Below, piece after piece: positions 1,794 through 58,644 of a stretch of 60,582 bases of DNA. Position 1 is the stretch's first letter. Each line of letters starts with the position of its first letter. The notes under the pieces are model-generated. The model had not been told where the DNA came from, did no database searches, and saw nothing but the letters and a program-made list of their open reading frames with translations. This DNA comes from Candidatus Levyibacteriota bacterium (GTDB taxonomy: Bacteria > Patescibacteriota > Microgenomatia > Levybacterales > UBA12049): contig JAJDCH010000006.1 of assembly GCA_029260905.1 (NCBI GenBank), forward strand, positions 1 to 60,582, given 5' to 3'. The position numbers were made by a program, and so were the translations under genes.

Positions 1794-4442
1794 TTAGTGC
1801 ACATGATGAAGAAAAAATTGATTTTTATTATTGTAAGCCTTGAAAATATCGAAAAATCCTGTTACTACAAAAACCGCGCCAAATGCCAAAAGCCAACTCT
1901 CAATCCCAAGAGGCACTGTTTCAAAAACTTTATTAAGAGGTGTGTAGATAATTAGAATTGATGCTAGAACCGAAGTCAAGCTTGCAAAGACTAAATACTT
2001 ATTGACAAAGATGCTACTCCCAAATACCTGATGACGGAAAGAGCGGAATGTATAAGCATTGGCAATCTGCACCAAAATCATACTCAGGAGAACTGTTGTT
2101 CTGGCTGTTTCAGGTGGGAATTTGATTATATTAAAGGAAAGATATGCAACCACAAAGGCTACAATTCCCATAATTGAGCCGTTCAAAATAATAATATTTA
2201 TAAATTCATTAGTCAAAATTTTGGCATTTTTTCTCGGCCTTTCTTTCATAATGTCTTTTGAAGAAGGATTAAATCCAAGAGTGAGCGCAGGGATATTATC
2301 AGTCACAATATTCATAAATAAAATCTGGAGCGCTGTAACAACTGGTGTGTACCAGCCAAGAAAAGGCGCAACAAGCATACCCATAAAAATAATATAAATA
2401 TCAGAAAAATTACACGCCAGCTGATAAGTCACGAACTTACGGATATTGTTAAAAATAGTTCTTCCCTCTTTAATGGCAAGAACAATTGTCGCGAAGTTAT
2501 CGTCTTTTAATGTAATATCCGCAACTGAACGAGATACATCAGTACCATTTATTCCCATAGCTACACCTATGTGTGCCTCCTTGAGAGCTGGCGCGTCATT
2601 TACACCGTCTCCTGTCATAGTCACTATCTCATCATTTTCTTTTAATGCCTTTATAATCCTGAGCTTGTCTTCTGGCTTAACGCGCGCAAAAACTCCTATT
2701 TCATTAACAATTTTTGAAAGCTCCGAATCCGTCATTTCGTCAAGCTCATAACCTGTAACTGTTTTTCCAACAATACCAATTTGACGGGCAATTGCCTCAG
2801 CTGTTTCCTTATTATCTCCTGTTATCATCTTGACCTTTATCCCACTTGCCCTACAAAGCTCAATCGCCTCTGCCACTTCTTCGCGTGGACTGTCCTCCAT
2901 GCCAGCAATTCCAAGAAATGTTAGATCGTCTTCTGTGTAAGATTTGCTTTTATTTTCTTTATAGGCAAAACTCAATGTCCGAAGCGCTTTTGCTGAAAAT
3001 TTCTGATTTGCTGCCACTTGTTCTTTTCTTTTCTTATCAGTAAGTTTCTCGCGTTTACCATTAATAAGAATATGCGTACATTTTGGAAGAACGACTTCAA
3101 TTGCGCCTTTCACATAAAGTAGATTGGTATCTTTTTCTGGATAAAGAACTGACATCATTTTACGCTTGGAATCAAATGGTATCTCCTCAATACGTGACTT
3201 GAGGTAATTTTCCCTGAAAATATCAAGCTTTGCTGCAAGAACCAAAAGAGCGCCCTCAGTTGATGAGCCTATCACTTTATATTCTCCATCCTCTCCTTCT
3301 CTTTCGATATTTGAATCATTACAAATAACTGCTGTTTTTAAAATCATACTCAGGGCATTCTCCCATGCAAGAGAAATCTTTTTTCCATTTCCTGTTATAT
3401 TTCCCTGGATGTCATAACCAACGCCTGAAACGTGATAAGTCTTTCCATCTGCAAAAAGCGTCTCGACTGTCATCTCGCCTTTTGTCAAAGTACCAGTCTT
3501 GTCAGAGCAAATTACTGATGTCTCACCAAGAGTTTCAATAATTGACATCCTATTCACAACAGCATTTTGCTTTGACATGCGGCTCACGCCTGCTGCAAGG
3601 GTGGTTGTCAGAACAACCGGAAATCCTTCAGGAAATGAAGAAACAGCAAGCGCTATGATAATAATAAAAATCCCAACCAGCACATCAGGAGTAATTGCAT
3701 CAGCGCGAAGAAACAAAATAACACCAGTCAAAACTGCGGCAGTCATACTCACTACCACCATATATTTGGAAATGTTATTTATCTTATCCTGAAGTGGCAG
3801 ATGTTTTTCCGCGCCAGATATCATTCCTGCTATTTCTCCAAATTTGGTATTCATCCCTGTATGGAGAACTCTTGCAAAAGCCCGTCCGCTGACCACATAT
3901 GATCCCATAAACAGTAAATTTTCATCCAATAGTTCTTTTTCAAGATCAGTTGCCCTAATCTTTCTGATATCAGAAGACTCCCCTGTGAGAATTGACTCAT
4001 TTACACTTAGACTTGATTCTCTTACCACCACACAATCTGCTGGTATTTTATCACCCGTTCTCAGGACCACTATGTCCCCTGGAACAATCTCGCTTGATGG
4101 AATCTCTTTTTCGCGTCCATCTCTTATCACGCGTGAGACAGGCATAATCAATTTTTTCAAAGCGCTAATTGCCTTCTCCGCCTTATATTCCTGGATAAAC
4201 CCTGTAATCACAACAAGAGCAATAACGATCAATACCACCCAGCCAGTAAAACCTTTATCGATAGCAAAGGATGCAATCGCAGTAAGCGCAAGCAAATAAA
4301 CAACAAAGTTTTTTTTCACTTGCCTGAAGAGGATCTGAAGAGGCGAAACTTTATTCTTCTCCTTGATTTCATTTAGACCAAACTCTTTTAATTTTTCTTT
4401 GGCTTGTATGACTGTCAGTCCATCAAGTATATTTTTGGGCAT
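1794..4442 (-). CDS. Cation-transporting P-type ATPase (type IIA, Ca2+-like)
   Basis: DKTGTLT phosphorylation site, TGES, PEGFP, KGA, TGDGVNDAPAL motifs. Start placed at MPKN (4442) behind a TATCAT -10. Confidence 0.95.
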   Translation of the reverse strand: MPKNILDGLTVIQAKEKLKEFGLNEIKEKNKVSPLQILFRQVKKNFVVYLLALTAIASFAIDKGFTGWVVLIVIALVVITGFIQEYKAEKAISALKKLIMPVSRVIRDGREKEIPSSEIVPGDIVVLRTGDKIPADCVVVRESSLSVNESILTGESSDIRKIRATDLEKELLDENLLFMGSYVVSGRAFARVLHTGMNTKFGEIAGMISGAEKHLPLQDKINNISKYMVVVSMTAAVLTGVILFLRADAITPDVLVGIFIIIIALAVSSFPEGFPVVLTTTLAAGVSRMSKQNAVVNRMSIIETLGETSVICSDKTGTLTKGEMTVETLFADGKTYHVSGVGYDIQGNITGNGKKISLAWENALSMILKTAVICNDSNIEREGEDGEYKVIGSSTEGALLVLAAKLDIFRENYLKSRIEEIPFDSKRKMMSVLYPEKDTNLLYVKGAIEVVLPKCTHILINGKREKLTDKKRKEQVAANQKFSAKALRTLSFAYKENKSKSYTEDDLTFLGIAGMEDSPREEVAEAIELCRASGIKVKMITGDNKETAEAIARQIGIVGKTVTGYELDEMTDSELSKIVNEIGVFARVKPEDKLRIIKALKENDEIVTMTGDGVNDAPALKEAHIGVAMGINGTDVSRSVADITLKDDNFATIVLAIKEGRTIFNNIRKFVTYQLACNFSDIYIIFMGMLVAPFLGWYTPVVTALQILFMNIVTDNIPALTLGFNPSSKDIMKERPRKNAKILTNEFINIIILNGSIMGIVAFVVAYLSFNIIKFPPETARTTVLLSMILVQIANAYTFRSFRHQVFGSSIFVNKYLVFASLTSVLASILIIYTPLNKVFETVPLGIESWLLAFGAVFVVTGFFDIFKAYNNKNQFFLHHVH

Positions 4443-4500: not shown

Positions 4501-4644
4501 ATGTCAGAAGAAACAACCAAAACAGGTCAAGACCTGAGAGATGCAATAGTAGATAAATTCAACACTCCTGAAAAAACCTTTAAAGGTGGTTACTCTATCA
4601 GTCAGCAAATTGCTTATCGGCAAACCAGAGTACAAATTATTTAA
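4501..4644 (+). CDS. Unannotated 47-aa small ORF (MSEETTKTGQDLRDAIVDKFNTPEKTFKGGYSISQQIAYRQTRVQII)
   Basis: Read directly from sequence; extended -10 TG-A-TAAAAT lies 6 nt before the ATG; divergent from the ATPase. Confidence 0.5.
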   Translation: MSEETTKTGQDLRDAIVDKFNTPEKTFKGGYSISQQIAYRQTRVQII

Positions 4645-4900
4645 AAATCTGACTCAGTATTCGATAAATATCTTTTCTATGACCAATGAGCACTATAAAG
4701 ATCTCATTTACCCGCTCGCGGTAAATGATCCTGTAATCACCCACTCGTACCCTATAAATATCTTTATATCCTGAAAGCTTTTCTTTTTTCAATTTCTCAT
4801 CAACAGGGAAAGATCTTATCTTTTTGACAATTGCGATTTGGTGAATTTTGGAAATTTTCTTGAGTGTTTTTTCCGCACGGGGTGAAATTTTCAGCTTCAT
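4637..4900 (-). CDS. relE: RelE/ParE-family toxin
   Basis: 87 aa, basic; KLSGYKDIYRVRVGDYRIIY motif; 4-nt overlap with the upstream antitoxin. Confidence 0.9.
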   Translation of the reverse strand: MKLKISPRAEKTLKKISKIHQIAIVKKIRSFPVDEKLKKEKLSGYKDIYRVRVGDYRIIYRERVNEIFIVLIGHRKDIYRILSQIFK

Positions 4901-5136
4901 AGATTAAGCTCTTTAGCTACATCTTCAAAATCATGACCTTTACTAAAATTTGTATCCTTAATATCCTTGCGGTCTATAAAATCCTCTATATATGAAACAA
5001 GCTTTTCATAAAGCTCACTGCCCACCAAGTATGCCTCGATTTTATTTCTATTCTCAACAGCCAAGGGAAAATCTGCTGCTTCCCTTATAGCTTTTGCAGG
5101 GTTTGTCTTCAATTGTGAAATAGACACTGAACTCAT
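4897..5136 (-). CDS. Phd/YefM-family antitoxin
   Basis: VSISQLKTNPAKAI...PLAVENRNKIEAYLV Phd-like N-terminus; acidic C-terminus; upstream of toxin. Confidence 0.85.
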   Translation of the reverse strand: MSSVSISQLKTNPAKAIREAADFPLAVENRNKIEAYLVGSELYEKLVSYIEDFIDRKDIKDTNFSKGHDFEDVAKELNL

Positions 5137-12376: not shown

Positions 12377-12782
12377 AGGGTGAAGGGTAAAGATAAAATA
12401 GATGGTAAAATCATATAAAGAACTCATTGTTTGGAAAAAATCAATGGAGATGGTAAGATTTATTTATCAACTAACAGAAAGCTTTCCAAAAGACGAGCTA
12501 TATGGTTTACGGTCTCAGATGGAAAGATCTGCTGTTGCAATCCCAAGCAATATTGCAGAGGGATATTTGAGACGACATCGCAAAGAGTATGTTCAGTTTT
12601 TATCAATATCCCTCAGCTCTGCAGCTGAACTTGAAACACAAATTCTTGTTTGTAAATCATTAAAAAAGTTTAAACATATAGATTTTTCTGAAACAGAATC
12701 ATTACTAAATGAGGTATTAAAAATGTTATTTGTTATGATAAATAAGATGGCTTGACGCTTAACCCTTAACGCTTTACGCTTA
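12368..12782. mobile_element. Four-helix-bundle gene enclosed by inverted heptamer arrays (full element)
   Basis: Left arm AAAGCGT-GAAGGGT-GAAGGGT-AAAG (12368-12392, contains the tktA stop); right arm CTTG-ACGCTTA-ACCCTTA-ACGCTTT-ACGCTT (12751-12782) is its near reverse complement. Mobility is inferred. Confidence 0.65.
12402..12755 (+). CDS. Four-helix-bundle protein (23S rRNA IVP / TIGR02436 family)
   Basis: SYKELIVWKKS, FPKDELYGLRSQMERSAVAIPSNIAEG, SAAELETQ signature. Confidence 0.92.
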   Translation: MVKSYKELIVWKKSMEMVRFIYQLTESFPKDELYGLRSQMERSAVAIPSNIAEGYLRRHRKEYVQFLSISLSSAAELETQILVCKSLKKFKHIDFSETESLLNEVLKMLFVMINKMA

Positions 12783-17927: not shown

Positions 17928-18278
17928 AAATAACCCAATACTACCAATAACCCAATCAGCAAATCAATGCAGAATACCAGATGTAGAATAATTTGTTTCT
18001 TTACCTTCTTTTCTAACTATTGCATATTTTGCAATAAAATCTTTTCTGCTATCTGTTCCGTCTGCTTCTTGATCGTTTGCTCCCATTGAAGTAGCTGAGC
18101 GTGTTATCTGAGTTATTATAATAATATTCTCAGGAGTCTTTGGAAGTTGTTTTACTAATTTTAAAATCCTTATTATAAATTGATAAATTCTTTCATGAAT
18201 ATCCTGAATCTTTTCTGTGTTTTGCATTGGATTATTGATTAGTAGTATTTGTAGTATTGGTTTATTTGTTTATTTATT
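17928..18278. mobile_element. Inverted octamer arrays enclosing a truncated four-helix-bundle gene
   Basis: Arm 17928-17981 (AATAACCC/AATACTACC/AATCAGCA) and arm 18214-18278 (reverse complement AATAAACA/AATACTAC/AATAATCC). Mobility is inferred. Confidence 0.6.
17964..18227 (-). pseudogene. Four-helix-bundle (IVP family) gene lacking its C-terminal helix
   Basis: DIHERIYQF...LPKTPEN...QITRSATSMGANDQEADG...DFIAKYAIVRKEGKETNY then abruptly STSGILH*; roughly 30 aa shorter than the 117-aa paralogue. Confidence 0.75.
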
Positions 18279-32697: not shown

Positions 32698-32780
32698 GTA
32701 ATCAACAAATCATCTAACTCCAAATCAACTAATAATCCACTTAATCAAATTTGTTTATTAGTTGATTTACTACTTCTTGA
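32698..32780. repeat. Empty inverted octamer-array hairpin
   Basis: Perfect 14-bp IR AAATCAACTAATAA (32722-32735) / TTATTAGTTGATTT (32755-32768) inside 8-mer periodic arms. Confidence 0.8.
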
Positions 32781-35151: not shown

Positions 35152-35229
35152 AATCGACAAATCAACTAATTACTCACCATCTCTTATTTAGTAATTGGCT
35201 GATTGGATAATTTGTATATTGGTTGATTA
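35152..35229. repeat. Empty inverted octamer-array hairpin
   Basis: AATCGACA-AATCAACT-AATTACTC versus ATTGGCTG-ATTGGATA-ATTTGTAT-ATTGGTTG-ATT. Confidence 0.75.
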
Positions 35230-36880: not shown

Positions 36881-36931
36881 TAATAAACCAATCAACTAAT
36901 TATCCAATGCAATTTGTTTATTAGTTGATTA
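36881..36931. repeat. Empty inverted octamer-array hairpin
   Basis: AATAAACC-AATCAACTAAT ... ATTTGTTT-ATTAGTTGATT. Confidence 0.8.
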
Positions 36932-49645: not shown

Positions 49646-50971
49646 TCAGGGTACGGGGTATTTGAAACAAAATTTCCTAACTTCACCAGCTATTAACTTC
49701 AATTTTTTATTGGCAAGTATTTCTTTTTTCATCTTTTTCCAAATCTCGCGCCTTTTTTCTTTATCAGCCGGCAAGTCCTCACCTGCCACCTCGTCAATTG
49801 CCTGTGCCATCCAAGAAGCTACTTTTTTCATATCCTTTTCTTTCATGCCTCGAGTTGTGATCGCTGGTGTTCCAAGCCTTATTCCAGATGGATAAAAAGG
49901 CGGATTGGTATCAAAGGGCACGCCGTTTTTGTTAAGAACTATTCCAGCCATCTCCAGAGCGAGTGCTGCTGGGGCGCCGTTGACTTTTTTGTTACGCAAA
50001 TCAATAAGAATCAGGTGATTATCCGTCCCTCCACTAACCAAGTCAAACCCAAGACGCGTCAACTCTGAGGCCAAGGCTTTGGAATTTTTGACAATTTGTG
50101 CTCCGTACTTCTTAAATGCTGGCTTACCTGCTTCAAGAAGTGCAACAGCAATTGCCGCTGTTTGATTGTCGTGCGGCCCTCCCTGAAGACCAGGAATTAT
50201 TGCCCGTTCGATATCTGCAGGCATGTCAGGATTACGCTTCAAGCCCTTATCCGTTACCATTATCATCGCACCTCTTGGACCCCTGAGTGTCTTATGAGTT
50301 GTTGTCATCACAACATCTGCGTATTTCACAGGTGACTCGTGCTCTTCTGCAATTATCAGACCAGTAATATGTGATATATCAGCCAGTAGATATGCACCCA
50401 CCTTTTCTGCAATCTTTGCAAACCTTTTAAAATCAATTTTTCGAGGATATGCGGTAAATCCTGCCACAATTATCTGTGGTTTTTCCTTAATTGCCTGCTT
50501 CTCAATCGCCTCATAATCAAGCAAGCCATCCTTCCCAAGTGTGTATGGAATTGCCTTATAAAAAGTACTAGACATATTAAGTTTTGCTCCATGTGTCAGG
50601 TGCCCGCCAAAAGAAAGCGACATTCCCATTATCTTGTCTCCAGGTTTTAGTAGCGCGAAGTAAATTGCAGCATTTGCTGGGCTGCCTGAGTAAGCTTGCA
50701 CATTAGCATACGGAACACCAAAAAGCTTCTGCGCCCTCTCTTGAGCCGTTATCTCAACACTATCTGCAACCGCATTTCCCTGATAATATCTTTTCTTTGG
50801 AAAACCTTCTGAATATTTATTGGTCAAGACAGTTCCCAGTGCCTCCATCACCGCGCGTGATGTGTAATTTTCTGAAGGGATCATCTCGAGTACATCTTTT
50901 TGTCTTTGCTCTTCCTGTTTTATCAAATTATAAATCTGCGGATCTGTCTTTTTGAGATTTTGCACGTCCAT
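49646..50971 (-). CDS. glyA: Serine hydroxymethyltransferase
   Basis: IPSENY, NKYSEGFPKKRYYQG, GGHLTHG, TTTHKTLRGPRG, SGIRLGTPAITTRG. Start at MDVQN. Confidence 0.97.
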   Translation of the reverse strand: MDVQNLKKTDPQIYNLIKQEEQRQKDVLEMIPSENYTSRAVMEALGTVLTNKYSEGFPKKRYYQGNAVADSVEITAQERAQKLFGVPYANVQAYSGSPANAAIYFALLKPGDKIMGMSLSFGGHLTHGAKLNMSSTFYKAIPYTLGKDGLLDYEAIEKQAIKEKPQIIVAGFTAYPRKIDFKRFAKIAEKVGAYLLADISHITGLIIAEEHESPVKYADVVMTTTHKTLRGPRGAMIMVTDKGLKRNPDMPADIERAIIPGLQGGPHDNQTAAIAVALLEAGKPAFKKYGAQIVKNSKALASELTRLGFDLVSGGTDNHLILIDLRNKKVNGAPAALALEMAGIVLNKNGVPFDTNPPFYPSGIRLGTPAITTRGMKEKDMKKVASWMAQAIDEVAGEDLPADKEKRREIWKKMKKEILANKKLKLIAGEVRKFCFKYPVP

Positions 50972-51216
50972 ACTATACAAACTTTTTCCCTCCATTGCAA
51001 GGTTTAATAATTCGAGGATTTAAAGTGATATCTAGCAGAGTGAAGGAGTAAATTTTTTCGCCAGGACGAATGGCTGATCTGATTTTTAAATAACAATAAA
51101 AGGTAATCGCCCACAATAAGAGGACAACATCATAAACGCCAAAAGGTGGGTCCAAGAAAAAATTATATTCCTGAGCTCAAAATCAGAATAGAATGCCGTG
51201 ACAAGACCTGCAAGGC

Positions 51217-51717
51217 TTATTTTTCAAGCGTTAGAAATTTGTATTTGTATCCATCTGCTTCACGATCTATCTCCTCAATTACTTTTGTAAATTTTGAATA
51301 ATTTGGGAAAAATACATCTGCTCCATAATCTCCCTCAACAACAGTCAGATACAATCTATCAATCATGTTCTTATCAAGCGCTTCCTTGAAAATCTGTCCT
51401 CCACCAAAAACAATTATCTCATCCGCTCCCTCACTTCTTTTTGCTATTTCCAGACCCTCCTCAAGCGAGGCGACCACAACTGCTCCTGAAATTTTGTATT
51501 TGGGATCACGGGTGATGATGACATTTGTGCGATCGGGAAGAACCCGACCAATTGATTCAAAAGTTTTTCTCCCCATCACAACTGGATGATCGGTGGTCAA
51601 CTCCTTCATGCGTTTAAAATCCTCAGGAATCCTAAAAAGAAGATCATTATTTTTCCCAATCCCCTTCTTCTCATCAATTGCCACAACTATCGAAACCCTT
51701 TGCTTATTCATAATCAT
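51217..51717 (-). CDS. folA: Dihydrofolate reductase
   Basis: GIGKNNDL, PEDFKRMK, VMGRKTFESIGRVLPDRTNVI, FGGGQIF, DVFFP. Confidence 0.96.
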   Translation of the reverse strand: MIMNKQRVSIVVAIDEKKGIGKNNDLLFRIPEDFKRMKELTTDHPVVMGRKTFESIGRVLPDRTNVIITRDPKYKISGAVVVASLEEGLEIAKRSEGADEIIVFGGGQIFKEALDKNMIDRLYLTVVEGDYGADVFFPNYSKFTKVIEEIDREADGYKYKFLTLEK

Positions 51718-51800
51718 TTATCTCTCAAGCTTCAAACACAGTATACCACTTTGTAAAATAAAATTGATAAATTAATAAAATTGTTTTTTATGAAAAGCTT

Positions 51801-52795
51801 TTATTTTTTATTTTTGGGTCTTCTCTTCTCTCCTGCCTTAAGCTTTGGTAAAGGGTCATAATATCCGCCGGCCACAGTCAGCTCTGCCTTGATAGTCGGG
51901 TGTGGTTCGTAGCCGATCAACTCAACGTGTTCGGGTCGAAAATCTGACAAACCCTTGAATTTGCCAAGTTTTAGCTTTGGAAAAGACTTTGGTTTTCTTT
52001 TCAGCTGCTCTTTAACTTGTGCTACATGATTTTCATAAATATGCGCATCACCATATGTATGGATAAACTCCCCGGGTTTATAACCCAAGATTTTGGCAAG
52101 TATCACAGCAAGAAGTGAATAACTGCCGATATTAAAAGGCACACCAAGAAACATATCACAACTTCTCTGATACAGATGCAGCGACAACTTGTTGTCTTTG
52201 ACACTTACCTGATACATATTGTGACAAATTGGAAAATATGATGTCTCATCTTTCTCCGCCATACTGTAGAGATATTCAGGATTCCAGCTGTTAACTATTG
52301 CGTTTCTGGCATCAGGGTCTTCACTCAATTCTTTAATTACCCATGAGAGCTGATCAATTGTCTTCCCTTTTTTCCTTGTCGGCCATCTCCTCCACATCTC
52401 TCCATAAATACGCGGCAGCTCTCCCCATTTCTTGGCAAACTTCGCATCTGTCCTAATCTTTTCTATAAACTCCTCTTTTGTCAGCTTTTTGCTTTTTGCT
52501 TTTTGCTATATATCTTATATGGGTAGTCATCCCAGATGTGGACATTGTTATCAACTAGATATTTGATGTTGGAGTTACCTGACAAGAACCAATACAGCTC
52601 CTTGAGAACTCCGTTCCAGTACACTCTTTTGGTTGTCAAAAGCGGAAAACTTTCTGACAAATCATACCTAGACTGTCTACCAAAAACGCTGTATGATTTG
52701 ACCCCAGTCCCTCGATCTACATTGACAACTCCATTTTTGAGGATGTCTTTGAGAAGATCTAAATATTGATGCTCTTGATGTTTGTCTCCTGCCAT
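51801..52795 (-). pseudogene. thyA: Thymidylate synthase split by a frameshift in a (GCAAAAA)3 repeat
   Basis: N-part: QYLDLL, DRGTG, FPLLTTKRV, ELYWFLSG, IWDDY. C-part in another frame: LTKEEFIEK...WGELPRIYG, PICH, QRSCDMFLGVPFN, DAHIYENH. Confidence 0.85.
52486..52506. repeat. Perfect heptamer tandem repeat (TTTTTGC)3
   Basis: Read directly at the thyA frame break. Confidence 0.9.
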
Positions 52796-52854
52796 AATAT
52801 CTACCCAATACTACCAATAACCAAGTAAACAAATCAAGCAATAAATTTTCCACC

Positions 52855-52892
52855 ACACATCTTTTTACAACGATCGTTTCAAAAAGATGTGT
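52855..52892. repeat. 38-bp imperfect palindrome
   Basis: ACACATCTTTTT-ACA-ACGATCGT-TTC-AAAAAGATGTGT. Confidence 0.85.
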
Positions 52893-52968
52893 AATCCGAT
52901 ATCACTTTTTATTAATTTTGGGGGTTGCAAAAATTAATAATAAATCAGTTTTACTATTTATAACCTGC

Positions 52969-54015
52969 TCAAAGCTGATCGTTAATCAAAAATGCCAGAA
53001 CTAGTGAAACTGCCAGGCCAAATCCTGCTCTCAAAAGATCTTTTCTCACTAACTTCAACGTATGTGAGTAAGGTTTTTTCTTATGAAGTGTTGCACGTAG
53101 CGCAATCTCCCGCCCTGCAAGTAGGCCCAGGAATACCCAAGTCGTACTCATCGGCAAATCATTTATCCATTTGAAATAAACCAAGACCAAACCATATACA
53201 AAATCTATAATTGTTGCAGATTTTACATATAAAACATCTGTTTTCTCTGTAACAACTTTCTGAATCTCTCCTCCCCTGCGAGAGATGATATATCCAAGCG
53301 CAAAAAACATAAACAGCAAAACAACAATTGCCTCAAATCCGCTCAAGACTCGGGGTAAATATACTGTAGCATTGGCTGCATCTTGAGTAAGCCAAGCGCT
53401 CCACAGAAATCCTGTTGACAACCATTGCAGTATGCGCCACTTTCTTTCTTGTTTTTTGGTAAGCTTTCGATCAAGCTTTTGCTGTCTTTTTTTGACTAAA
53501 TATCCAATGGCTCCCCAGACAAGAAGCGCCACCAGGAACGAAAGGATATATCCAGTAATGGTTTTGTTTATCATGCCGGTTATTGTTTTTGAGGAAGAAA
53601 ATGTGGCAAGAATCAAAAAAGTAGTTGACACAGGCATCCTATATCTCGTCAATGAAATCAATATAATCGGTGCCAGAAGCTGAAGAAAAGAAAAATCACT
53701 TGGCTGAGGGATTCTATTTAACCTGTCAAAACTCACACTCCCTGCATTTGCAAACCAACCATATCCAAGAGTCACAAGCATAATCCCACCCATAAAAAGC
53801 CAGAGGATTTTCCAGGGAGTATTTCTATTGGAAGATAAAAAAGTACCTAGCGTCTGAATACTGTCATTACTAACTGTTGAAAACGCGGCTACCGCAAATC
53901 CAAACCACATTGCTAAAATCGGCTGATCAAATATAATCCCAGCTGTCAGAATTAGAACTGACATTATAGAAATAAAAACTACGTTGTTGCCGAAAAACGC
54001 ACGAGCTGCTCTCAT
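52969..54015 (-). CDS. Multi-pass membrane protein, distantly PiT/PHO4 (phosphate/sulfate permease)-like
   Basis: SNDSIQTLGTF, MPVSTT, QDAANATV and PMSTTWV resemble the duplicated PiT signatures. Confidence 0.55.
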   Translation of the reverse strand: MRAARAFFGNNVVFISIMSVLILTAGIIFDQPILAMWFGFAVAAFSTVSNDSIQTLGTFLSSNRNTPWKILWLFMGGIMLVTLGYGWFANAGSVSFDRLNRIPQPSDFSFLQLLAPIILISLTRYRMPVSTTFLILATFSSSKTITGMINKTITGYILSFLVALLVWGAIGYLVKKRQQKLDRKLTKKQERKWRILQWLSTGFLWSAWLTQDAANATVYLPRVLSGFEAIVVLLFMFFALGYIISRRGGEIQKVVTEKTDVLYVKSATIIDFVYGLVLVYFKWINDLPMSTTWVFLGLLAGREIALRATLHKKKPYSHTLKLVRKDLLRAGFGLAVSLVLAFLINDQL

Positions 54016-54142
54016 AAATAACTATAAATAACTATTTCTTTGTAACGGTTCTAAAAGAGCATAACTAAAAAATTATCAATACGCAATGCCCCCAGATTAG
54101 GGTTATTTTGGAAATTCTACAGATACGAAATATAACCAACCC

Positions 54143-54180
54143 ACACATTTTTTATACACGATCGTGTATAAAAAATGTGT
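54143..54180. repeat. Perfect 38-bp palindrome
   Basis: ACACATTTTTTATACACGATCGTGTATAAAAAATGTGT equals its own reverse complement. Confidence 0.92.
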
Positions 54181-54326
54181 ATTATTTCTGAGCTGGTTAA
54201 AGCCTCTATTGGAAAATTTTTTATAAAAAAAGCATCGACAGATAAATTTTAAACTGGAATAATCAATGAATGAAAAGCAATTAATATTGAAACACAAATG
54301 TACAACCTCTGCTTGTCTGATCTAGA

Positions 54327-54866
54327 CTAAACCTGCTTCTCTTTCTTCGTCGTTGTCACCCGGCCGCCCTGCCACTGGCCCCGGTACATATTGCCCCCAC
54401 CTGCGACTTCATGGAATTGGATGTGGACTATTCGCGCGCCAAGTTCTATCGTCACCGGAACTGGTCCTTCGTTTTTCAAACCAAAGTTCAAACCGCCACA
54501 ATATCCCGGTGGGACATTTCCTGTCCGAATAAATAAACCGCTGCGGTAAGTGGTGGAACGAGGCGTAATACTTGCAGTTAAATCTGGAGGCATATTGACA
54601 TTTTCTATGGTTTTGACAAGATAAAACTCACCCGGCTTGATGACCACTTTTTGTACTCTTTTTTCATCATACGCCTTGATGAGACTAACCTCAGCGGTGT
54701 GCCGTTCTGTGACACCCAGGAATGCTTTTCCAGATATTTTATAAACCTCACCAAGTCGCAGATCAAAACCTGCGCCCTCAGGATTTGTCAGCTCCCGCTC
54801 AGACAAGCTCTCAACAAGCTTTAGCTTTTTAACTAATTGTAATAATTTTTTCGGACCTAAAACCAT
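54327..54866 (-). CDS. Trimeric dUTPase/dCTP deaminase family protein
   Basis: GFDLRLG, PRSTTYRSG, PPGYCGGL, GARIVHIQF. Confidence 0.8.
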   Translation of the reverse strand: MVLGPKKLLQLVKKLKLVESLSERELTNPEGAGFDLRLGEVYKISGKAFLGVTERHTAEVSLIKAYDEKRVQKVVIKPGEFYLVKTIENVNMPPDLTASITPRSTTYRSGLFIRTGNVPPGYCGGLNFGLKNEGPVPVTIELGARIVHIQFHEVAGGGNMYRGQWQGGRVTTTKKEKQV

Positions 54867-54871
54867 AAATT

Positions 54872-54941
54872 AAATAAATCAGCAAATCAACTAATTCCCA
54901 ATCATCTAATTATCCAATTAACTTGCTGCTTGGTTGATTGC
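54872..54941. repeat. Inverted octamer-array hairpin with one arm inside the tmk 3' end
   Basis: AATAAATC-AGCAAATC-AACTAATT-CCCAATCA-TCTAATTA versus ACTTGCTG-CTTGGTTG-ATTGC (encodes AINQAAS*). Confidence 0.65.
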
Positions 54942-55589
54942 TTTTACAATCTCCCCCGCGACTTCCTCAACGCTCTTTCCAGCATCAATTATCTTAAACT
55001 CCTCAGAAAATTCTTTCAAGAGCCATTCATAACCATGGCAAACCTTCTCTATTTTATTTTTTTCCTCATAAATCTCTTTCTCTCCTCCCTTTTCTGAAAG
55101 TCTTTCTAGTGCTGTTTCTAAAGGCAGCTGAAGATAAAAAGTCTGATCAGGTATGGTAAAAGGCAACGCATGTCCAATCAGAAATTGATATGCCAAGGAA
55201 TAATCATATTCTCCATTCATCCGGTCAAGGATGCCATAAACAATCGCTGACCAAAAAGCCCTATCTGTTATTACAACTTTACCAGCTTTCAAGGCGGGCA
55301 CAATCAACTCTTCATGTTTTATTGCCCTATCTGTTGAAAAAAGATACTGATTGGCAATATCAGGAATTTTTATCTCGCCTGTTAAAACTTTTTCTACAAT
55401 ATCGCCAATTAAGCCTTCTTTTCTAGGCTCTCTCGTAGTTACAACAACACGTCCTTTTTCCTCAAAAAATCTTTTCAACTCATTAACTTGTGTAGTTTTT
55501 CCAGACCCATCTATGCCCTCAAGCGCAATATAAAGCCCCTCGTGGGGATTTCGTTTAAATTCAATGCCAAAATCAATGTGATACTTCAT
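54918..55589 (-). CDS. tmk: Thymidylate (dTMP) kinase
   Basis: EGIDGSGKTTQ, TREP, LFSTDRA, VITDRA, PDQTFYL. Confidence 0.94.
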   Translation of the reverse strand: MKYHIDFGIEFKRNPHEGLYIALEGIDGSGKTTQVNELKRFFEEKGRVVVTTREPRKEGLIGDIVEKVLTGEIKIPDIANQYLFSTDRAIKHEELIVPALKAGKVVITDRAFWSAIVYGILDRMNGEYDYSLAYQFLIGHALPFTIPDQTFYLQLPLETALERLSEKGGEKEIYEEKNKIEKVCHGYEWLLKEFSEEFKIIDAGKSVEEVAGEIVKAINQAAS

Positions 55590-55593
55590 AAAA

Positions 55594-55689
55594 AATCAAC
55601 TAATTTCCAATTAACCAATCATCTAATTATAAACCCTCAAAATGTATTGTTTAATTTGTTGATTGGTTTATTAGATGATTTGTTTATTA
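55594..55689. repeat. Empty inverted octamer-array hairpin
   Basis: AATCAACT-AATTTCC-AATTAACC-AATCATCT-AAT versus ATTGTTTA-ATTTGTTG-ATTGGTTT-ATTAGATG-ATTTGTTT-ATT. Confidence 0.85.
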
Positions 55690-55692
55690 CAA

Positions 55693-56262
55693 CTATTTCT
55701 CCTCGTGAATTCTTGACTCTTCAGGTCCTTTTTGAAATCTGTACTTGGCATATCTTTTCTTGGAATAAGGATTGGTTGACTCACTGCTTAGTTCTTCAAA
55801 AGTCATAGCGCAAATCCGCATCCCAACTGTTAGCTTCAAGGCCATTCTGCCCAAATTTCCAAGCTCAAGAACAGGATTCCCATCCCATCCTGGATCAAAA
55901 ATACTAGCAGTTGAGTGAACAACTAGACCCAAACGACCAAGTGACGAACGCCCCTCAAGCCTACCCATCAGATCAGATGGAATTTTTACTGATTCAAGCG
56001 TGACAGCAAGCACAAATTCCCCAGGTTGCATAATAAAGCTACCATTTTGGGGCACTTTGATAACTTTTGTAATTTCATTGCTGTAGTCTTTCTGCGAAGG
56101 GTCTATGTAGGCGTGTCTCGAATGATCAAAAACCCGAAATGTGTCACCAAGCCTCAAATCAATTGAGCAACTACCAAGCTGTTTGTTCAAATCTGGCTTT
56201 GGTTTTATGAGAATTCTTTTTGAATCCAAAGCTTTTTTGATGTCCTGATCCGATAAAACCAT
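55693..56262 (-). CDS. dcd: dCTP deaminase
   Basis: MVLSDQDI, SIDLRLG, QPGEFVLA, EGRSSLGRLG, DPGWDG, LELGN, RICAM. Confidence 0.94.
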   Translation of the reverse strand: MVLSDQDIKKALDSKRILIKPKPDLNKQLGSCSIDLRLGDTFRVFDHSRHAYIDPSQKDYSNEITKVIKVPQNGSFIMQPGEFVLAVTLESVKIPSDLMGRLEGRSSLGRLGLVVHSTASIFDPGWDGNPVLELGNLGRMALKLTVGMRICAMTFEELSSESTNPYSKKRYAKYRFQKGPEESRIHEEK

Positions 56263-56328
56263 GATAGAAAGTTTACCACGGCTTGGGTATATTGACAATG
56301 CCTTATACATCTAATACGCTTAATTTGT

Positions 56329-58644
56329 ATGCGAAAAAATCTCAAATTCAGGCAAAGACTAAAAAAAATGCTTTTTTTTTCACTTATATTTCTCGGGGTC
56401 ATTGCGCTTAGCCTCACCCCTCTTCCTAAATCCACAATAAACAATCATCTGACTACCATCCTTCTTGCCCAGACAACTGGATCCAGTGGTGGTGATGGTC
56501 CAAATAACGCAGGAAGCGGCGGAAAAGGAGGAGTAAATGGCCAAGCTGGCGAAAAAGGAGAAAACAGCAATACAGCATCTGGTGGAAATGGTGGAAGCGC
56601 AAATGGTGGTGCGGGAGGCAATGGTGGCAATTCCAACTTGTCAACTGGAAAACAAGGCTTTGGCGCAGGTGGCGGTGGCGGTGGCGCATCACTTACAGGC
56701 TTAGGTGGAAGAGGCGGTAACGGTGGCAAAGGTCAAGGCACTGCAGGCGGACAACATGGATTTGGTGGTGGTGGCGGTGGCGGTGGCGCAGGACTAACTG
56801 GCGGACTAGGAGGTAATGGTGGAGAGGGAGCAGGTGGCGGAGGAGGCGCAGATGGGAATGGAGGCGGTGGAGGAACTGGAGGTGCTGGTATAAATGGTGG
56901 AAACGGTGGACAAGGTGGAAATGGAGGCAATGGAAATGGAGGAGGAGGGGGTGCAACTGCCAGAGGCGGTGCAGGAGGAAGCGGAGGTCCTGGCAGCCCA
57001 GGAATCAATAACGGACCAGCTGGACGAGGTGGCACGGGAGGACGCGGAGGCGATATTGACAGCGATAGAAACGGTGGTCGTCCGGGTAGAGGCGGTACAG
57101 GCGGGCGAGGAGGCGATGCTTGTGGCGGACCAGGACTTCCTGGAATAAGCGCAACTGATCCCTCCCCAGGGTCAAGAGTAGGCACAGATGGCGGAACTGG
57201 TGGAATTGGAGGACCAGCGTGTTCTCCACCAACTCCCAGTTGCAATCCCGCAACAGGAACAGTCACATGGACATGGGGAGAGATCAATGGCAGTAGCAAT
57301 GCAACTCTTAGGGTTTACAATCAAGACACTGGAGATTTCTTAAGCGAACAAACAGGACCATCTCCACAACAAACAACCCATCTTGTTCTCAATACTGAAG
57401 GAGAAATAGCATATAATGGCTCGACAGTTTTTTCAACCAGAACAGCTATACAATGTATTCCTCCTACATATACTATTTCAGGAAATATCTTCAACGACAC
57501 AAACAAAAACCGCATAAAAGATTCAACTGAATCAAACTATCTTAAAGCCCCAAACATTTCAATTTCGCCAGACAGAGGCATTATTACAACAAACCCAAAT
57601 GGCACATATAACATCTCAGGAATTTACGCAGGAACTTATACAGTTTCCTATGGATCAATACCTATTTCTGAGGGGTATGTGATGATCCACCCCAAACCAC
57701 CCTCTTTTCAAGTAAAAGTTGGCGCGGGTTGTTTGGTCACAGATCCATCAACTGGTGGTACCTGTACAGCATTAAATAACGTAAACAACCTTAACTTCGC
57801 GATATCCAATTCTTTCCCTTGGATGCAAACATATGATCTGGATATTAGGGTTGACAGTGGTTACAGCAACTTATTGCCAAATCTCAAATATGCATCAGCA
57901 ATTTCCGCATCCGCAACAACACCAGGTATCATATTCACAGGAAATATAAATGCTGATTTTGGAATCGGACAGGCATCAACCAAAAATTGGGTTGTTGGTG
58001 GTGCTGCATATCCTGAAACCTACAGAAAATCAGGAAGCAGCCTCCAAACATCCTACAAATATCTACTTGATAAAGCAATAAGGTCTGGTTCTGAAATAAA
58101 AGATCTTACAACAGTCTGCCCTGTTCTTAGTAACTGCACACTCCCAATCAGTTTACCCAAAGGCATTTATCATGCTGATGGAGATGTTGGTCTTAACGCA
58201 TACACGTTTCCTGCAAATAATCAAATAGTTATACTCGTGAAAGGAAAGATTACGATAAATGGCAATACTTCTACACCAAACAGTTCTTCGGTTGTTTTTT
58301 CAACAAGTGAAGATATAATAGTAGACGAAAACGTAGGAATCAACACTCCAACAAGTCCCCTTCTTCCGCCTGGACAACTACAAGGAATCTTTGTCGCAGG
58401 AAGAAACTTTATTATTAATGGAAATGGAACCAACTGCGCAACTAAAGATAAAATGTTAAATATTGATGGAGCTGTAATTATAAATGCTTTGGGCCTTGGC
58501 GGATCACTTCAAAACAAGCGCGACCTCTGTGGTGACAATGAATCATTTCCTGCTTTTTCAATCAGCCCTAGGCTTGATTTTCTTCTTAATGCGCCAAATT
58601 TTCTAATGCAGACAAATATTTCATCATATGAGGAGACTCCATGA
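56329..58644 (+). CDS. Large secreted/surface protein with long glycine-rich region and SdrD-B-like domain
   Basis: N-terminal TM; about 250 aa of GGxGGxGG repeats; YTISGNIFNDTNKN..KD motif; beta-rich C-terminus. Confidence 0.8.
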   Translation: MRKNLKFRQRLKKMLFFSLIFLGVIALSLTPLPKSTINNHLTTILLAQTTGSSGGDGPNNAGSGGKGGVNGQAGEKGENSNTASGGNGGSANGGAGGNGGNSNLSTGKQGFGAGGGGGGASLTGLGGRGGNGGKGQGTAGGQHGFGGGGGGGGAGLTGGLGGNGGEGAGGGGGADGNGGGGGTGGAGINGGNGGQGGNGGNGNGGGGGATARGGAGGSGGPGSPGINNGPAGRGGTGGRGGDIDSDRNGGRPGRGGTGGRGGDACGGPGLPGISATDPSPGSRVGTDGGTGGIGGPACSPPTPSCNPATGTVTWTWGEINGSSNATLRVYNQDTGDFLSEQTGPSPQQTTHLVLNTEGEIAYNGSTVFSTRTAIQCIPPTYTISGNIFNDTNKNRIKDSTESNYLKAPNISISPDRGIITTNPNGTYNISGIYAGTYTVSYGSIPISEGYVMIHPKPPSFQVKVGAGCLVTDPSTGGTCTALNNVNNLNFAISNSFPWMQTYDLDIRVDSGYSNLLPNLKYASAISASATTPGIIFTGNINADFGIGQASTKNWVVGGAAYPETYRKSGSSLQTSYKYLLDKAIRSGSEIKDLTTVCPVLSNCTLPISLPKGIYHADGDVGLNAYTFPANNQIVILVKGKITINGNTSTPNSSSVVFSTSEDIIVDENVGINTPTSPLLPPGQLQGIFVAGRNFIINGNGTNCATKDKMLNIDGAVIINALGLGGSLQNKRDLCGDNESFPAFSISPRLDFLLNAPNFLMQTNISSYEETP

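Follow-up and report, generated by a model that had tools for sequence, protein, structure and literature searches.

The PaaX repressor of Escherichia coli recognizes a 39-bp operator, TGATTC-N27-GAATCA (PMC9493321). In E. coli and Pseudomonas, operators of this kind serve a GntR-type repressor of phenylacetate catabolism and have inverted outer hexamers approximately 26-27 bp apart. A similar layout, rare in its wide spacing, ACACAT-N26-ATGTGT, is found in two 38-bp palindromes, here called Pal1 and Pal2, on a contig from a Candidatus Levyibacteriota bacterium (assembly GCA_029260905.1, contig JAJDCH010000006.1). The whole stretch of 60,582 nucleotides is referred to as the window. Pal1 and Pal2 bracket a gene for a PiT-like membrane protein that interrupts the cluster of genes for deoxythymidine monophosphate (dTMP) synthesis, next to thyA. 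Sites of the same family in related contigs overlap the promoter of a PaaX-family gene, in the manner of autoregulation at E. coli Px. Judged from their sequence, the family sites are most likely binding sites of a PaaX-type regulator in Patescibacteria and not the ends of mobile cassettes, and there is an even chance that Pal1 and Pal2 themselves form a pair of operators through which a PaaX-like repressor controls the PiT-like gene and thyA.

The sites differ from described PaaX operators in several ways. Their outer blocks read nnACAn/nTGTnn and not TGATTC/GAATCA, which would require another sub-family specificity. The whole 38 bp are palindromic, with A/T tracts and an invariant central ACGATCGT. 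The putative targets are thyA, a PiT-fold transporter and housekeeping genes instead of aromatic catabolism, and site pairs approximately 0.9-1.3 kb apart bracket a gene, with no cognate regulator gene in the window. The sites resemble a PaaX operator in their wide-spaced inverted boxes and autoregulatory placement and depart from it in the box sequence, the GATC-centred core, the full palindromy, the paired bracket and the targets. The motif is not described in Rfam or in the literature searched, in which nothing relevant on the core sequences was found.

The CIRCE (controlling inverted repeat of chaperone expression) operator of HrcA is comparable as a long palindrome conserved across phyla, with few copies per genome, and as a repressor operator able to fold in mRNA. 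It differs in sequence (TTAGCACTC-N9-GAGTGCTAA), in its regulator and heat-shock regulon, and in lying between promoter and gene. The outer ACAC.../...GTGT also resembles the half-sites of NrdR, and a deoxynucleotide-pathway gene is the target in both cases. NrdR boxes were reportedly described by Rodionov and Gelfand in 2005 as 16-bp palindromes, acaCwAtATaTwGtgt, that usually occur in tandem. Against this consensus, an NrdR box was rejected, as positions 1-16 and 23-38 of either site are not palindromic. An ARG box and the sites of BirA, dif/Xer, parS and protelomerase were rejected on sequence or position, and a lead to a LexA motif in Patescibacteria was dropped.

A first-pass annotation of the window, made from the sequence alone, had reported two palindromes of equal length, each directly preceded by CC and followed by A, one perfect and the other with compensatory change in its arms. 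Both palindromes are present as reported (Table 1). Pal2 is the perfect one; the two mismatched pairs of Pal1 lie at arm positions 13-14, and at arm positions 7 and 12 Pal1 differs from Pal2 through a change that is symmetric within Pal1. The pattern common to both has 2 matches compared to 0.00 expected (100 shuffles of the sequence), and the 60.6-kb window contains no other zero-loop 38-bp palindrome with at least 15/19 symmetry. Relative to thyA, Pal1 lies upstream by 59 nt from the ATG, 17 nt from the predicted -35 box and approximately 54 to 91 nt from the predicted transcription start. Pal2 is located 146 nt downstream of the dcd' stop codon and 127 nt upstream of the ATG of the PiT-like gene. 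The latter distance agrees with the earlier figure, whereas the stop codon of the PiT-like gene is 76 nt from Pal1 and not 77 nt. Counts of GATC and CGATCG in the sequence reveal neither avoidance nor enrichment suggestive of restriction-modification.

Both elements recur in independent Logan contigs of four runs from one biofilm study, Pal1 with its flanks and without differences, Pal2 in overlapping pieces. In run X3, one Logan contig folds back at Pal2 (window 54142-54180) with a joint of the "opposite strands" type. Since a perfect palindrome of this length exceeds the assembly word length, the contig breaks and the fold-back at Pal2 are assembly artefacts and not evidence of inversion. 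Further copies, which the first-pass annotation had proposed to look for, were not found at 80% likeness or above in the contigs of the four source runs; the window has two copies in 60 kb.

The 247-kb NCBI contig L011 (GCA_029260965.1), which was found with a read-through ThyA query by way of a 91%-identical protein, provides a syntenic relative. Its order is dcd-tmk-dcd'-thyA-(TrpR-like gene)-folA-glyA-VWA-rpsB-tsf-frr, which is that of the window minus the membrane gene and plus a small regulator gene. Here dcd' is followed by a single palindrome (copy c3, ACACAATTTTTTGAGACGATCGTCTTTAAAAATTGTGT, L011:9904-9941) in a 178-bp spacer and then directly by thyA, and the palindrome stands 59 nt from the ATG as Pal1 does. 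An empty-site allele with one palindrome, as the first-pass annotation had envisaged, is therefore present, and the relative and the Pfam gene calls bear out its description of a gene that interrupts the dTMP cluster. The window and L011 become homologous at the nucleotide level 2 bp ahead of the palindrome and stay so across the promoter region and thyA (promoter flank z = 13.6), with approximately 91% identity over the 56 aligned nt between palindrome and thyA ATG. The left flanks of Pal1, Pal2 and c3 are unalike (z <1), and only the flank from Pal1 to thyA is conserved. Pal1 is therefore the ortholog of the L011 site, and the membrane gene and Pal2 lie in an insertion to its left. Three arm pairs have changed on both sides between Pal1 and this ortholog (6/33, 7/32 and 15/24). 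In contigs L012 and L013 (ThyA 88%), thyA comes right after the preceding gene, and both the palindrome and the PiT-like gene are absent.

The exact pattern of the first-pass annotation has one match in genome contigs (Agrobacterium, 14/19 symmetric, approximately the number expected by chance) and none in metagenome contigs. It is too strict, because the orthologous L011 copy reads ACACAA. A refined pattern, ACAnnTTTTnnnnACGATCGTnnnnAAAAnnTGT, was built from the positions invariant in four copies, namely Pal1, Pal2 and two from L011, the second of which (c4, TGACAATTTTTGAAGACGATCGTCTCAAAAAATTGTCA) lies in the transcribed spacer between the 16S rRNA gene and tRNA-Cys. The refined pattern matched six metagenome loci and had no match in viral contigs; in 5 of the 6 loci, the symmetry extends to 7 or all 8 of the unconstrained arm pairs. 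A looser pattern had found in viral contigs five copies of one G+C-rich quasi-palindrome (CACATGGTACACGAACGATCGTCGGTGTCCCATGTG, 15/19), located in IMG/VR giant-virus contigs L006-L010 (e.g. L006 1350-1385). This sequence has the ends and the centre of the first-pass pattern and lacks the A/T tracts; it was judged unrelated.

With the refined pattern and a covariance model the family has approximately 20 members, mostly in contigs of Patescibacteria, and its architecture is fixed: nnACAn-(A/T tract)-nnnnACGATCGTnnnn-(A/T tract)-nTGTnn. Members share the 38-bp length and the block positions across contigs of 33-59% G+C, which a protein that measures out the site would explain better than hairpin stability alone. 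With the covariance model, additional and more degenerate copies came to light at distances of 79 bp (L015), 922 bp (L018) and 5.4 kb (L014) from the first copies there, and L019 has two copies 110 bp apart; family copies thus tend to occur in local pairs. Their contexts comprise divergent promoter regions (L017, L014, L018-B, L020 and L021), convergent gene ends (L018-A) and co-directional spacers.

The association with PaaX emerged from contig L018, which was retrieved through the DNA pattern alone. Two L018 sites enclose a PaaX-family gene: the one at 4131-4168 follows the stop codon at a distance of 21 nt, and the one at 5053-5090 precedes the start by 10 nt. The encoded protein matches E. 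coli PaaX (PDB 8a39) with an E-value of 9.5e-7, or 1.1e-11 with a profile, and 8a39 is likewise the best structural match to the model of the L021 homologue. A site pair brackets a PaaX-family gene in five loci from four lineages. The centre-to-centre spacing is 922 bp in L018 and 932 bp (L020), 934 bp (L021), 957 bp (L022) and 955 bp (L025) in the others, whose proteins are 89%, 57%, 56% and 49% identical to that of L018, respectively. L018 and L021 share the context ruvB / PaaX-like gene / serS despite identities of 52% for SerS and 85% for RuvB. Because it is syntenic across this divergence of SerS, the bracket around the PaaX-like gene is old and stable. The central octamer tracks the regulator lineage and reads ACGATCG, GCTATAGC or ATGATCGT. 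The PaaX-linked sites are symmetric at only 13-15 of 19 pairs. In L018-B and the upstream site of L021, the A/T tracts are on the same strand in both arms, so that pairing is lost and tract composition is kept, which argues for a protein that reads the shape of duplex DNA and not for a hairpin.

The upstream sites hold what appears to be the leaderless promoter of the PaaX-like gene: TTGACG at the centre, 17 nt, TATAGT or TAGAGT from site position 36, and 5-6 nt to the start codon. This overlap of site and promoter has the layout classically associated with autorepression. In L020 and L021, the mirror half of the upstream site faces a T-box-like leader of the serS operon. The leader (L021 5648-5869, minus strand, and the matching part of L020; 35 bits, under the Rfam cut-off of 93) precedes a His_Phos_1-serS operon and is read in the direction opposite to the PaaX-like gene, with transcription heading away from the palindromic site that both share. 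The same promoter boxes suggest that the element might be the symmetric core of a bidirectional promoter, with back-to-back -35 boxes at the centre and -10 boxes at the outer edges, and not the site of a regulator. In L018-B, in the upstream sites of L020 and L021, in the downstream site of L021 and in L022, both halves indeed read TTGACG-17 nt-TA(T/G)AGT, and genes or the T-box-like leader start a few nt beyond. However, usable -35 and -10 boxes are missing from the window copies (GAAACG/TGTGGT in Pal1, TACACG/TGTGGG in Pal2) and from most members, thyA and the PiT-like gene have promoter-like boxes of their own beside their start codons, and the invariant blocks (ACA, the A/T tract and ACGATCGT) differ from the promoter consensus. 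A bidirectional promoter is accordingly a very improbable account of the family.

From the observed sites, their orthologous conservation, their architecture and their association with PaaX-like genes and promoters in other contigs, we infer that the same protein family acts in the window, by looping or as a roadblock. A symmetric oligomeric winged-helix repressor of the PaaX family, encoded elsewhere in the genome, would bind Pal1 and Pal2 as double-stranded DNA. It would read three symmetric blocks: the central ACGATCGT, the A/T tract and, outermost, ACA/TGT, whose two halves have their centres 31 bp apart, or approximately three helical turns. Pal1 and Pal2 would bracket the PiT-like gene as the regulator's own gene is bracketed in related organisms, and the protein on the two sites would either hold the enclosed gene in a loop or stop read-through into and out of it. 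Protein bound to Pal1 may also affect the adjacent thyA promoter, so that the PiT-like transporter and thyA would be coupled to one signal. Operators of one regulator controlling both genes had been one of two readings in the first-pass annotation. That reading is favoured by the conservation of Pal1, the fixed three-block architecture, and the PaaX brackets with their promoter overlap; the lack of the regulator gene in the window speaks against it.

Transcriptional regulation in the candidate phyla radiation is almost unexplored. Should the proposal be correct, it would provide a concrete regulatory motif, a candidate regulator family and a recurrent architecture in which two sites bracket one gene. 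It would also tie thymidylate synthesis to a widespread, uncharacterised PiT-fold transporter of nucleotide-scavenging organisms and hint at the role of that transporter.

Several observations weigh against operators of a PaaX-like repressor. A search with hidden Markov models found no PaaX-like gene in the 60.6-kb window, L011, L014-L017 or L019; because the window has no such gene, the regulator's link to its sites is one that we infer. The N-terminal DNA-binding domain of the PaaX-like proteins is undetected by Pfam and modelled with low confidence. Pal1 lies upstream of the predicted promoter and not over it, Pal2 is far from its gene at 127 nt, and downstream of the PaaX-like genes the sites are found where convergent genes end, which is odd for an operator. 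Some of the six metagenome matches could be unrelated palindromes, with a rough estimate of 1-2 chance matches among the perfect palindromes. In the window and L011, likeness is greater between the two arms of one site (17-19/19) than across sites (14-16/19), and the three double compensatory changes between orthologous sites are such as selection for pairing would give. Because of this excess arm symmetry and these changes, a plain operator model needs an extra mechanism. Quasipalindrome template-switch correction can create arm symmetry at positions that are not read. The excess symmetry in the window and L011 may have arisen in this way, without selection for pairing.

This excess symmetry is also the main argument for palindromes that act in folded form, either as an RNA hairpin (17-bp stem, GAUC loop) serving co-directional neighbouring genes as a 3'-end, processing or insulator signal, or as a DNA cruciform or single-strand hairpin for a structure-specific protein. 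Across ten copies, pairing holds in 94.7% of cells, and both partners have changed at 10 of 17 pairs; none of 500 shuffles reaches this level, and slid controls attain 59% at most. At 11 arm positions symmetry is imposed by the pattern itself, which leaves only the free positions as evidence, and the covariation is inflated because symmetric copies are favoured by the pattern as well as by the covariance model. The double compensatory changes between Pal1 and L011 c3 fit folding, as do predicted RNA energies of -14 to -21 kcal/mol (z-scores -3.7 to -8.9) and the greater stability of Pal1 on the thyA-sense strand through a G-U pair. The locations are partly suitable: both window copies lie between co-directional genes, c4 of L011 is in a transcribed spacer, and the downstream sites of PaaX-like genes are at convergent gene ends. 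However, the sites in the divergent promoter regions of L017, L014, L018-B, L020 and L021 have no upstream transcript to terminate or process, positionally conserved sites occur without pairing of the A/T tracts, and Pal1, upstream of the predicted thyA start, would be outside the thyA mRNA barring read-through. Stability alone leaves the fixed length, the block positions and the palindromic loop unexplained.

An intrinsic (Rho-independent) terminator was rejected: the stem consists largely of A and U, its T-run belongs to the 5' arm, and neither strand has a U-tract behind the stem. The canonical terminators of the same loci differ, with an A-run 5' and a T-run 3' of a G+C-rich stem, and the "terminator-like" call of the terminator scan at Pal2 equals the shuffle expectation. 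A known RNA family was likewise rejected: Rfam 15 has no match in the window at E <=1, and in the six loci scanned only weak leader matches below the cut-off lie over sites. A folded form as the functional state is considered unlikely, though it is kept as a serious rival and is the least unlikely of the alternatives to operators of a PaaX-like repressor.

The empty arrangement in L011 and the lack of the PiT-like gene in the outgroups L012 and L013 also accord with the other reading of the first-pass annotation, in which some unknown site-specific recombination system would cross over at the palindromes and would have inserted the PiT-like gene as a cassette at a site already present, comparable to integron attC or Xer/pdif. 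The repeated unit has sharp 38-bp boundaries and unrelated flanks, its symmetric centre (AT within CGATCG) would suit a staggered cut, and tandem copies with short spacers occur in L015 and L019. Integron cassettes, including CALINs (clusters of attC sites lacking integron-integrases), similarly have hairpin-capable sites that flank single genes, structure kept more than sequence, conserved bases near the stem base, and an empty one-copy site in a relative. On the other hand, the core motifs of attC (RYYYAAC/GTTRRRY) are absent from the sites described here, as are extrahelical bases (Pal2 being perfect), a nearby integrase and a cassette array; attC sites measure 57-141 bp in contrast to a fixed 38 bp, and the enclosed gene has its own promoter-like boxes.

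Other observations also disfavour recombination. Pfam found no recombinase, integrase or transposase among the window's open reading frames of at least 60 amino acids, where the first-pass annotation had suggested looking for a nearby recombinase. The arms of Pal1 and Pal2 are not reciprocal hybrids, since they agree at 17-19 of 19 positions inside a site and at 14-15 of 19 between the two. No skip or circle joints, such as excision would leave, were found in four runs at approximately 7x depth, where only assembled contigs were covered and rare variants are dropped. There are no target duplications, the four PiT-like homologues examined elsewhere have no such site, and in relatives other genes are inserted between thyA and folA without these palindromes. 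The bracket around PaaX-like genes, syntenic over deep divergence, indicates that bracketing is not a sign of mobility. Paired palindromes around a gene, even with an empty one-copy site in a relative, do not on their own demonstrate a mobile cassette, and recombination sites are a highly unlikely explanation, though marginally less so than a bidirectional promoter. The faintest prospect of all is a combination in which the 38-bp palindromes bind protein and, in addition, admit genes into Patescibacteria genomes through a hairpin- or cruciform-based insertion system. Single genes such as the PiT-like gene would be captured beside a palindrome already in place, and the Cas2-like domain of the PaaX-family protein might assist. 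If true, such a system would resemble integron cassettes while using a novel type of site and lacking a canonical integrase.

The palindromes could also represent a very small selfish element without a role for the flanking genes, similar to repetitive extragenic palindromic (REP) sequences or miniature inverted-repeat transposable elements, or the solo ends of a site-gene-site unit of approximately 970 bp with the gene for the PaaX-like protein. Intergenic regions of every orientation type contain sites, which are sporadic (missing upstream of thyA in L012 and L013) and cluster locally in pairs. The 59% G+C contig L017 and L011 share a near-identical arm, TTTTTTGAGACGA, and L015 has a degenerate copy beside an intact one. 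REP sequences and bacterial interspersed mosaic elements (BIMEs) are likewise short intergenic palindromes, sometimes paired, and can stabilise or insulate transcripts. However, they are species-specific, high-copy, G+C-rich and tied to REP-associated tyrosine transposases (RAYTs), whereas here the copy number is low (6 loci in the metagenome collection besides the pair in the window), the architecture is conserved in distant organisms, and the thyA site is orthologously conserved with compensatory change. No RAYT or IS200-type gene and no target duplications were found. The PaaX-like unit occurs in a single copy and in synteny, and repression is the established function of PaaX proteins. A selfish element is thus about as improbable as a bidirectional promoter.

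Table 1. Location of the palindromes, the surrounding genes and predicted signals in the window, and the PaaX-family gene in contig L018.
Feature	Contig	Position	Strand	Description	Sequence
Pal1	window	52855..52892	.	38-bp palindrome, 17/19 symmetric arm pairs	ACACATCTTTTTACAACGATCGTTTCAAAAAGATGTGT
Pal2	window	54143..54180	.	perfect 38-bp palindrome, 19/19	ACACATTTTTTATACACGATCGTGTATAAAAAATGTGT
Bracketed gene	window	52969..54015	minus	348-amino-acid multi-helix membrane protein, predicted distant PiT/PHO4-fold transporter	
dcd	window	55693-56310	minus	Pfam gene call	
tmk	window	54918-55589	minus	Pfam gene call	
dcd'	window	54327..54866	minus	second dcd-like gene; dCTP deaminase/dUTPase-like, 179 amino acids	
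thyA	window	51801..52795	minus	split into two open reading frames by a frameshift	
folA	window	51217-51717	minus	Pfam gene call	
glyA	window	49646-50995	minus	Pfam gene call	
Predicted thyA promoter	window	52808..52837	minus	-35 box 52832-52837, 18 nt, -10 box 52808-52813, 12 nt to ATG	TTGATT, TAGTAT
Predicted -10 box of PiT-like gene	window	54021..54026	minus	5 nt before ATG, from sequence	TATAGT
AT-only inverted repeat	window	52906..52943	.	14-nt arms, 10-nt spacer; directly after PiT-like gene	
PaaX-family gene	L018	4189-5043	minus	Pfam PaaX_M and PaaX_C domains	

Every gene between 49.6 and 56.3 kb is on the minus strand, and in the direction of transcription the order by Pfam is dcd, tmk, dcd', Pal2, the membrane gene, Pal1, thyA, folA and glyA. 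Many genes of the window have a -10 box 5-12 nt ahead of the start codon, a layout of leaderless type. The AT-only inverted repeat after the PiT-like gene is not a member of the family and may mark the 3' end of that gene. The Pfam scan of the same open reading frames found housekeeping genes (rpsB-tsf-frr, proS, dnaX-ybaB-recR, prs, cysS and others) and no classical transcription factor.

The bracketed protein had been called PiT-like in the first-pass annotation, and this description holds at the level of the fold only. Its AlphaFold model (predicted local distance difference test score 84) matches the Thermotoga PiT structure 6L85 (Foldseek E 1.7e-4, template modelling score 0.58-0.60, 17% identity), which suggests a PiT-like fold. 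At the sequence level the Pfam PHO4 match (PF01384) scores 26.1 bits, under the cut-off of 33.7, and neither sequence nor profile has a match in PDB. Homologues number in the thousands in Patescibacteria, in varied gene contexts. Looking up the exact protein returned no identical record, and family sites are absent from the contexts of the four PiT-like homologues examined.

The frameshift in thyA is located at a tandem of three heptamers, (GCAAAAA)x3, at 52484-52506. One added base or one added heptamer at this tandem would give a full-length ThyA of approximately 330 amino acids, compared to 325 in intact relatives. The frameshift is not an error peculiar to this assembly, since a Logan contig of run X2 (52094-52507) has no differences. 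The split thyA could be a pseudogene or a slippage-prone switch. A more abundant relative in the same biofilm (approximately 40x versus 7x; runs X1 and X3) is approximately 87% identical over folA, the start of thyA and dcd (window 51217-51664, 52484-52711 and 55694-56221), and differs in the tmk-dcd spacer, where 36 bp replace 102 bp.

Proteins of the dTMP cluster are 88-93% identical between the window (49646-56310) and L011 (7850-13601): Dcd 92.5%, Dcd' 93%, ThyA 88-94% (two pieces), FolA 91.5% and GlyA 93%. The flanking housekeeping proteins reach 56-77% (RpsB 71%, Tsf 77%, Frr 71%, RseP 56%), and mid-cluster Tmk reaches 62%. This contrast may be due to strong constraint or to horizontal exchange of the cluster in mosaic fashion. 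Cluster spacers gain single genes repeatedly. The thyA-folA spacer, 83 bp in the window, contains a TrpR-like gene of 129 amino acids in L011 (11117-11506) and a gene for a 257-amino-acid protein with three helix-turn-helix motifs in L012 (1278-2051). Both were rejected as the cognate regulator, as neither recurs near other copies of the palindrome.

A second intergenic word, ATTAGWTGATT, often occurs as inverted pairs and has 18 matches in the window compared to 5.8 expected, a count that none of 100 shuffles reaches. The matches are concentrated in five spacers (32700-32767, 35160-35228, 36890-36930, 54885-54910 and 55594-55680), which include dcd|tmk and tmk|dcd', and the tmk-dcd' spacer of L011 also has the word. 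It may be the site of another regulator or a leader element. Adjoining the dTMP cluster, 56329-58644 encodes a 771-amino-acid protein with a long Gly/Asn-rich, low-complexity N-terminal half and no Pfam match; on the corresponding side, L011 has a cohesin-like protein. The window also encodes a ParE toxin / Phd-YefM antitoxin pair (4637-5136). Genes of the 23S-rRNA-intervening-sequence-protein family (bAvd-like four-helix bundle) occur at 12402-12755 and 17964-18227 and once in L025, and the one at 12402-12755 sits between separately encoded N-terminal and C-terminal halves of transketolase.

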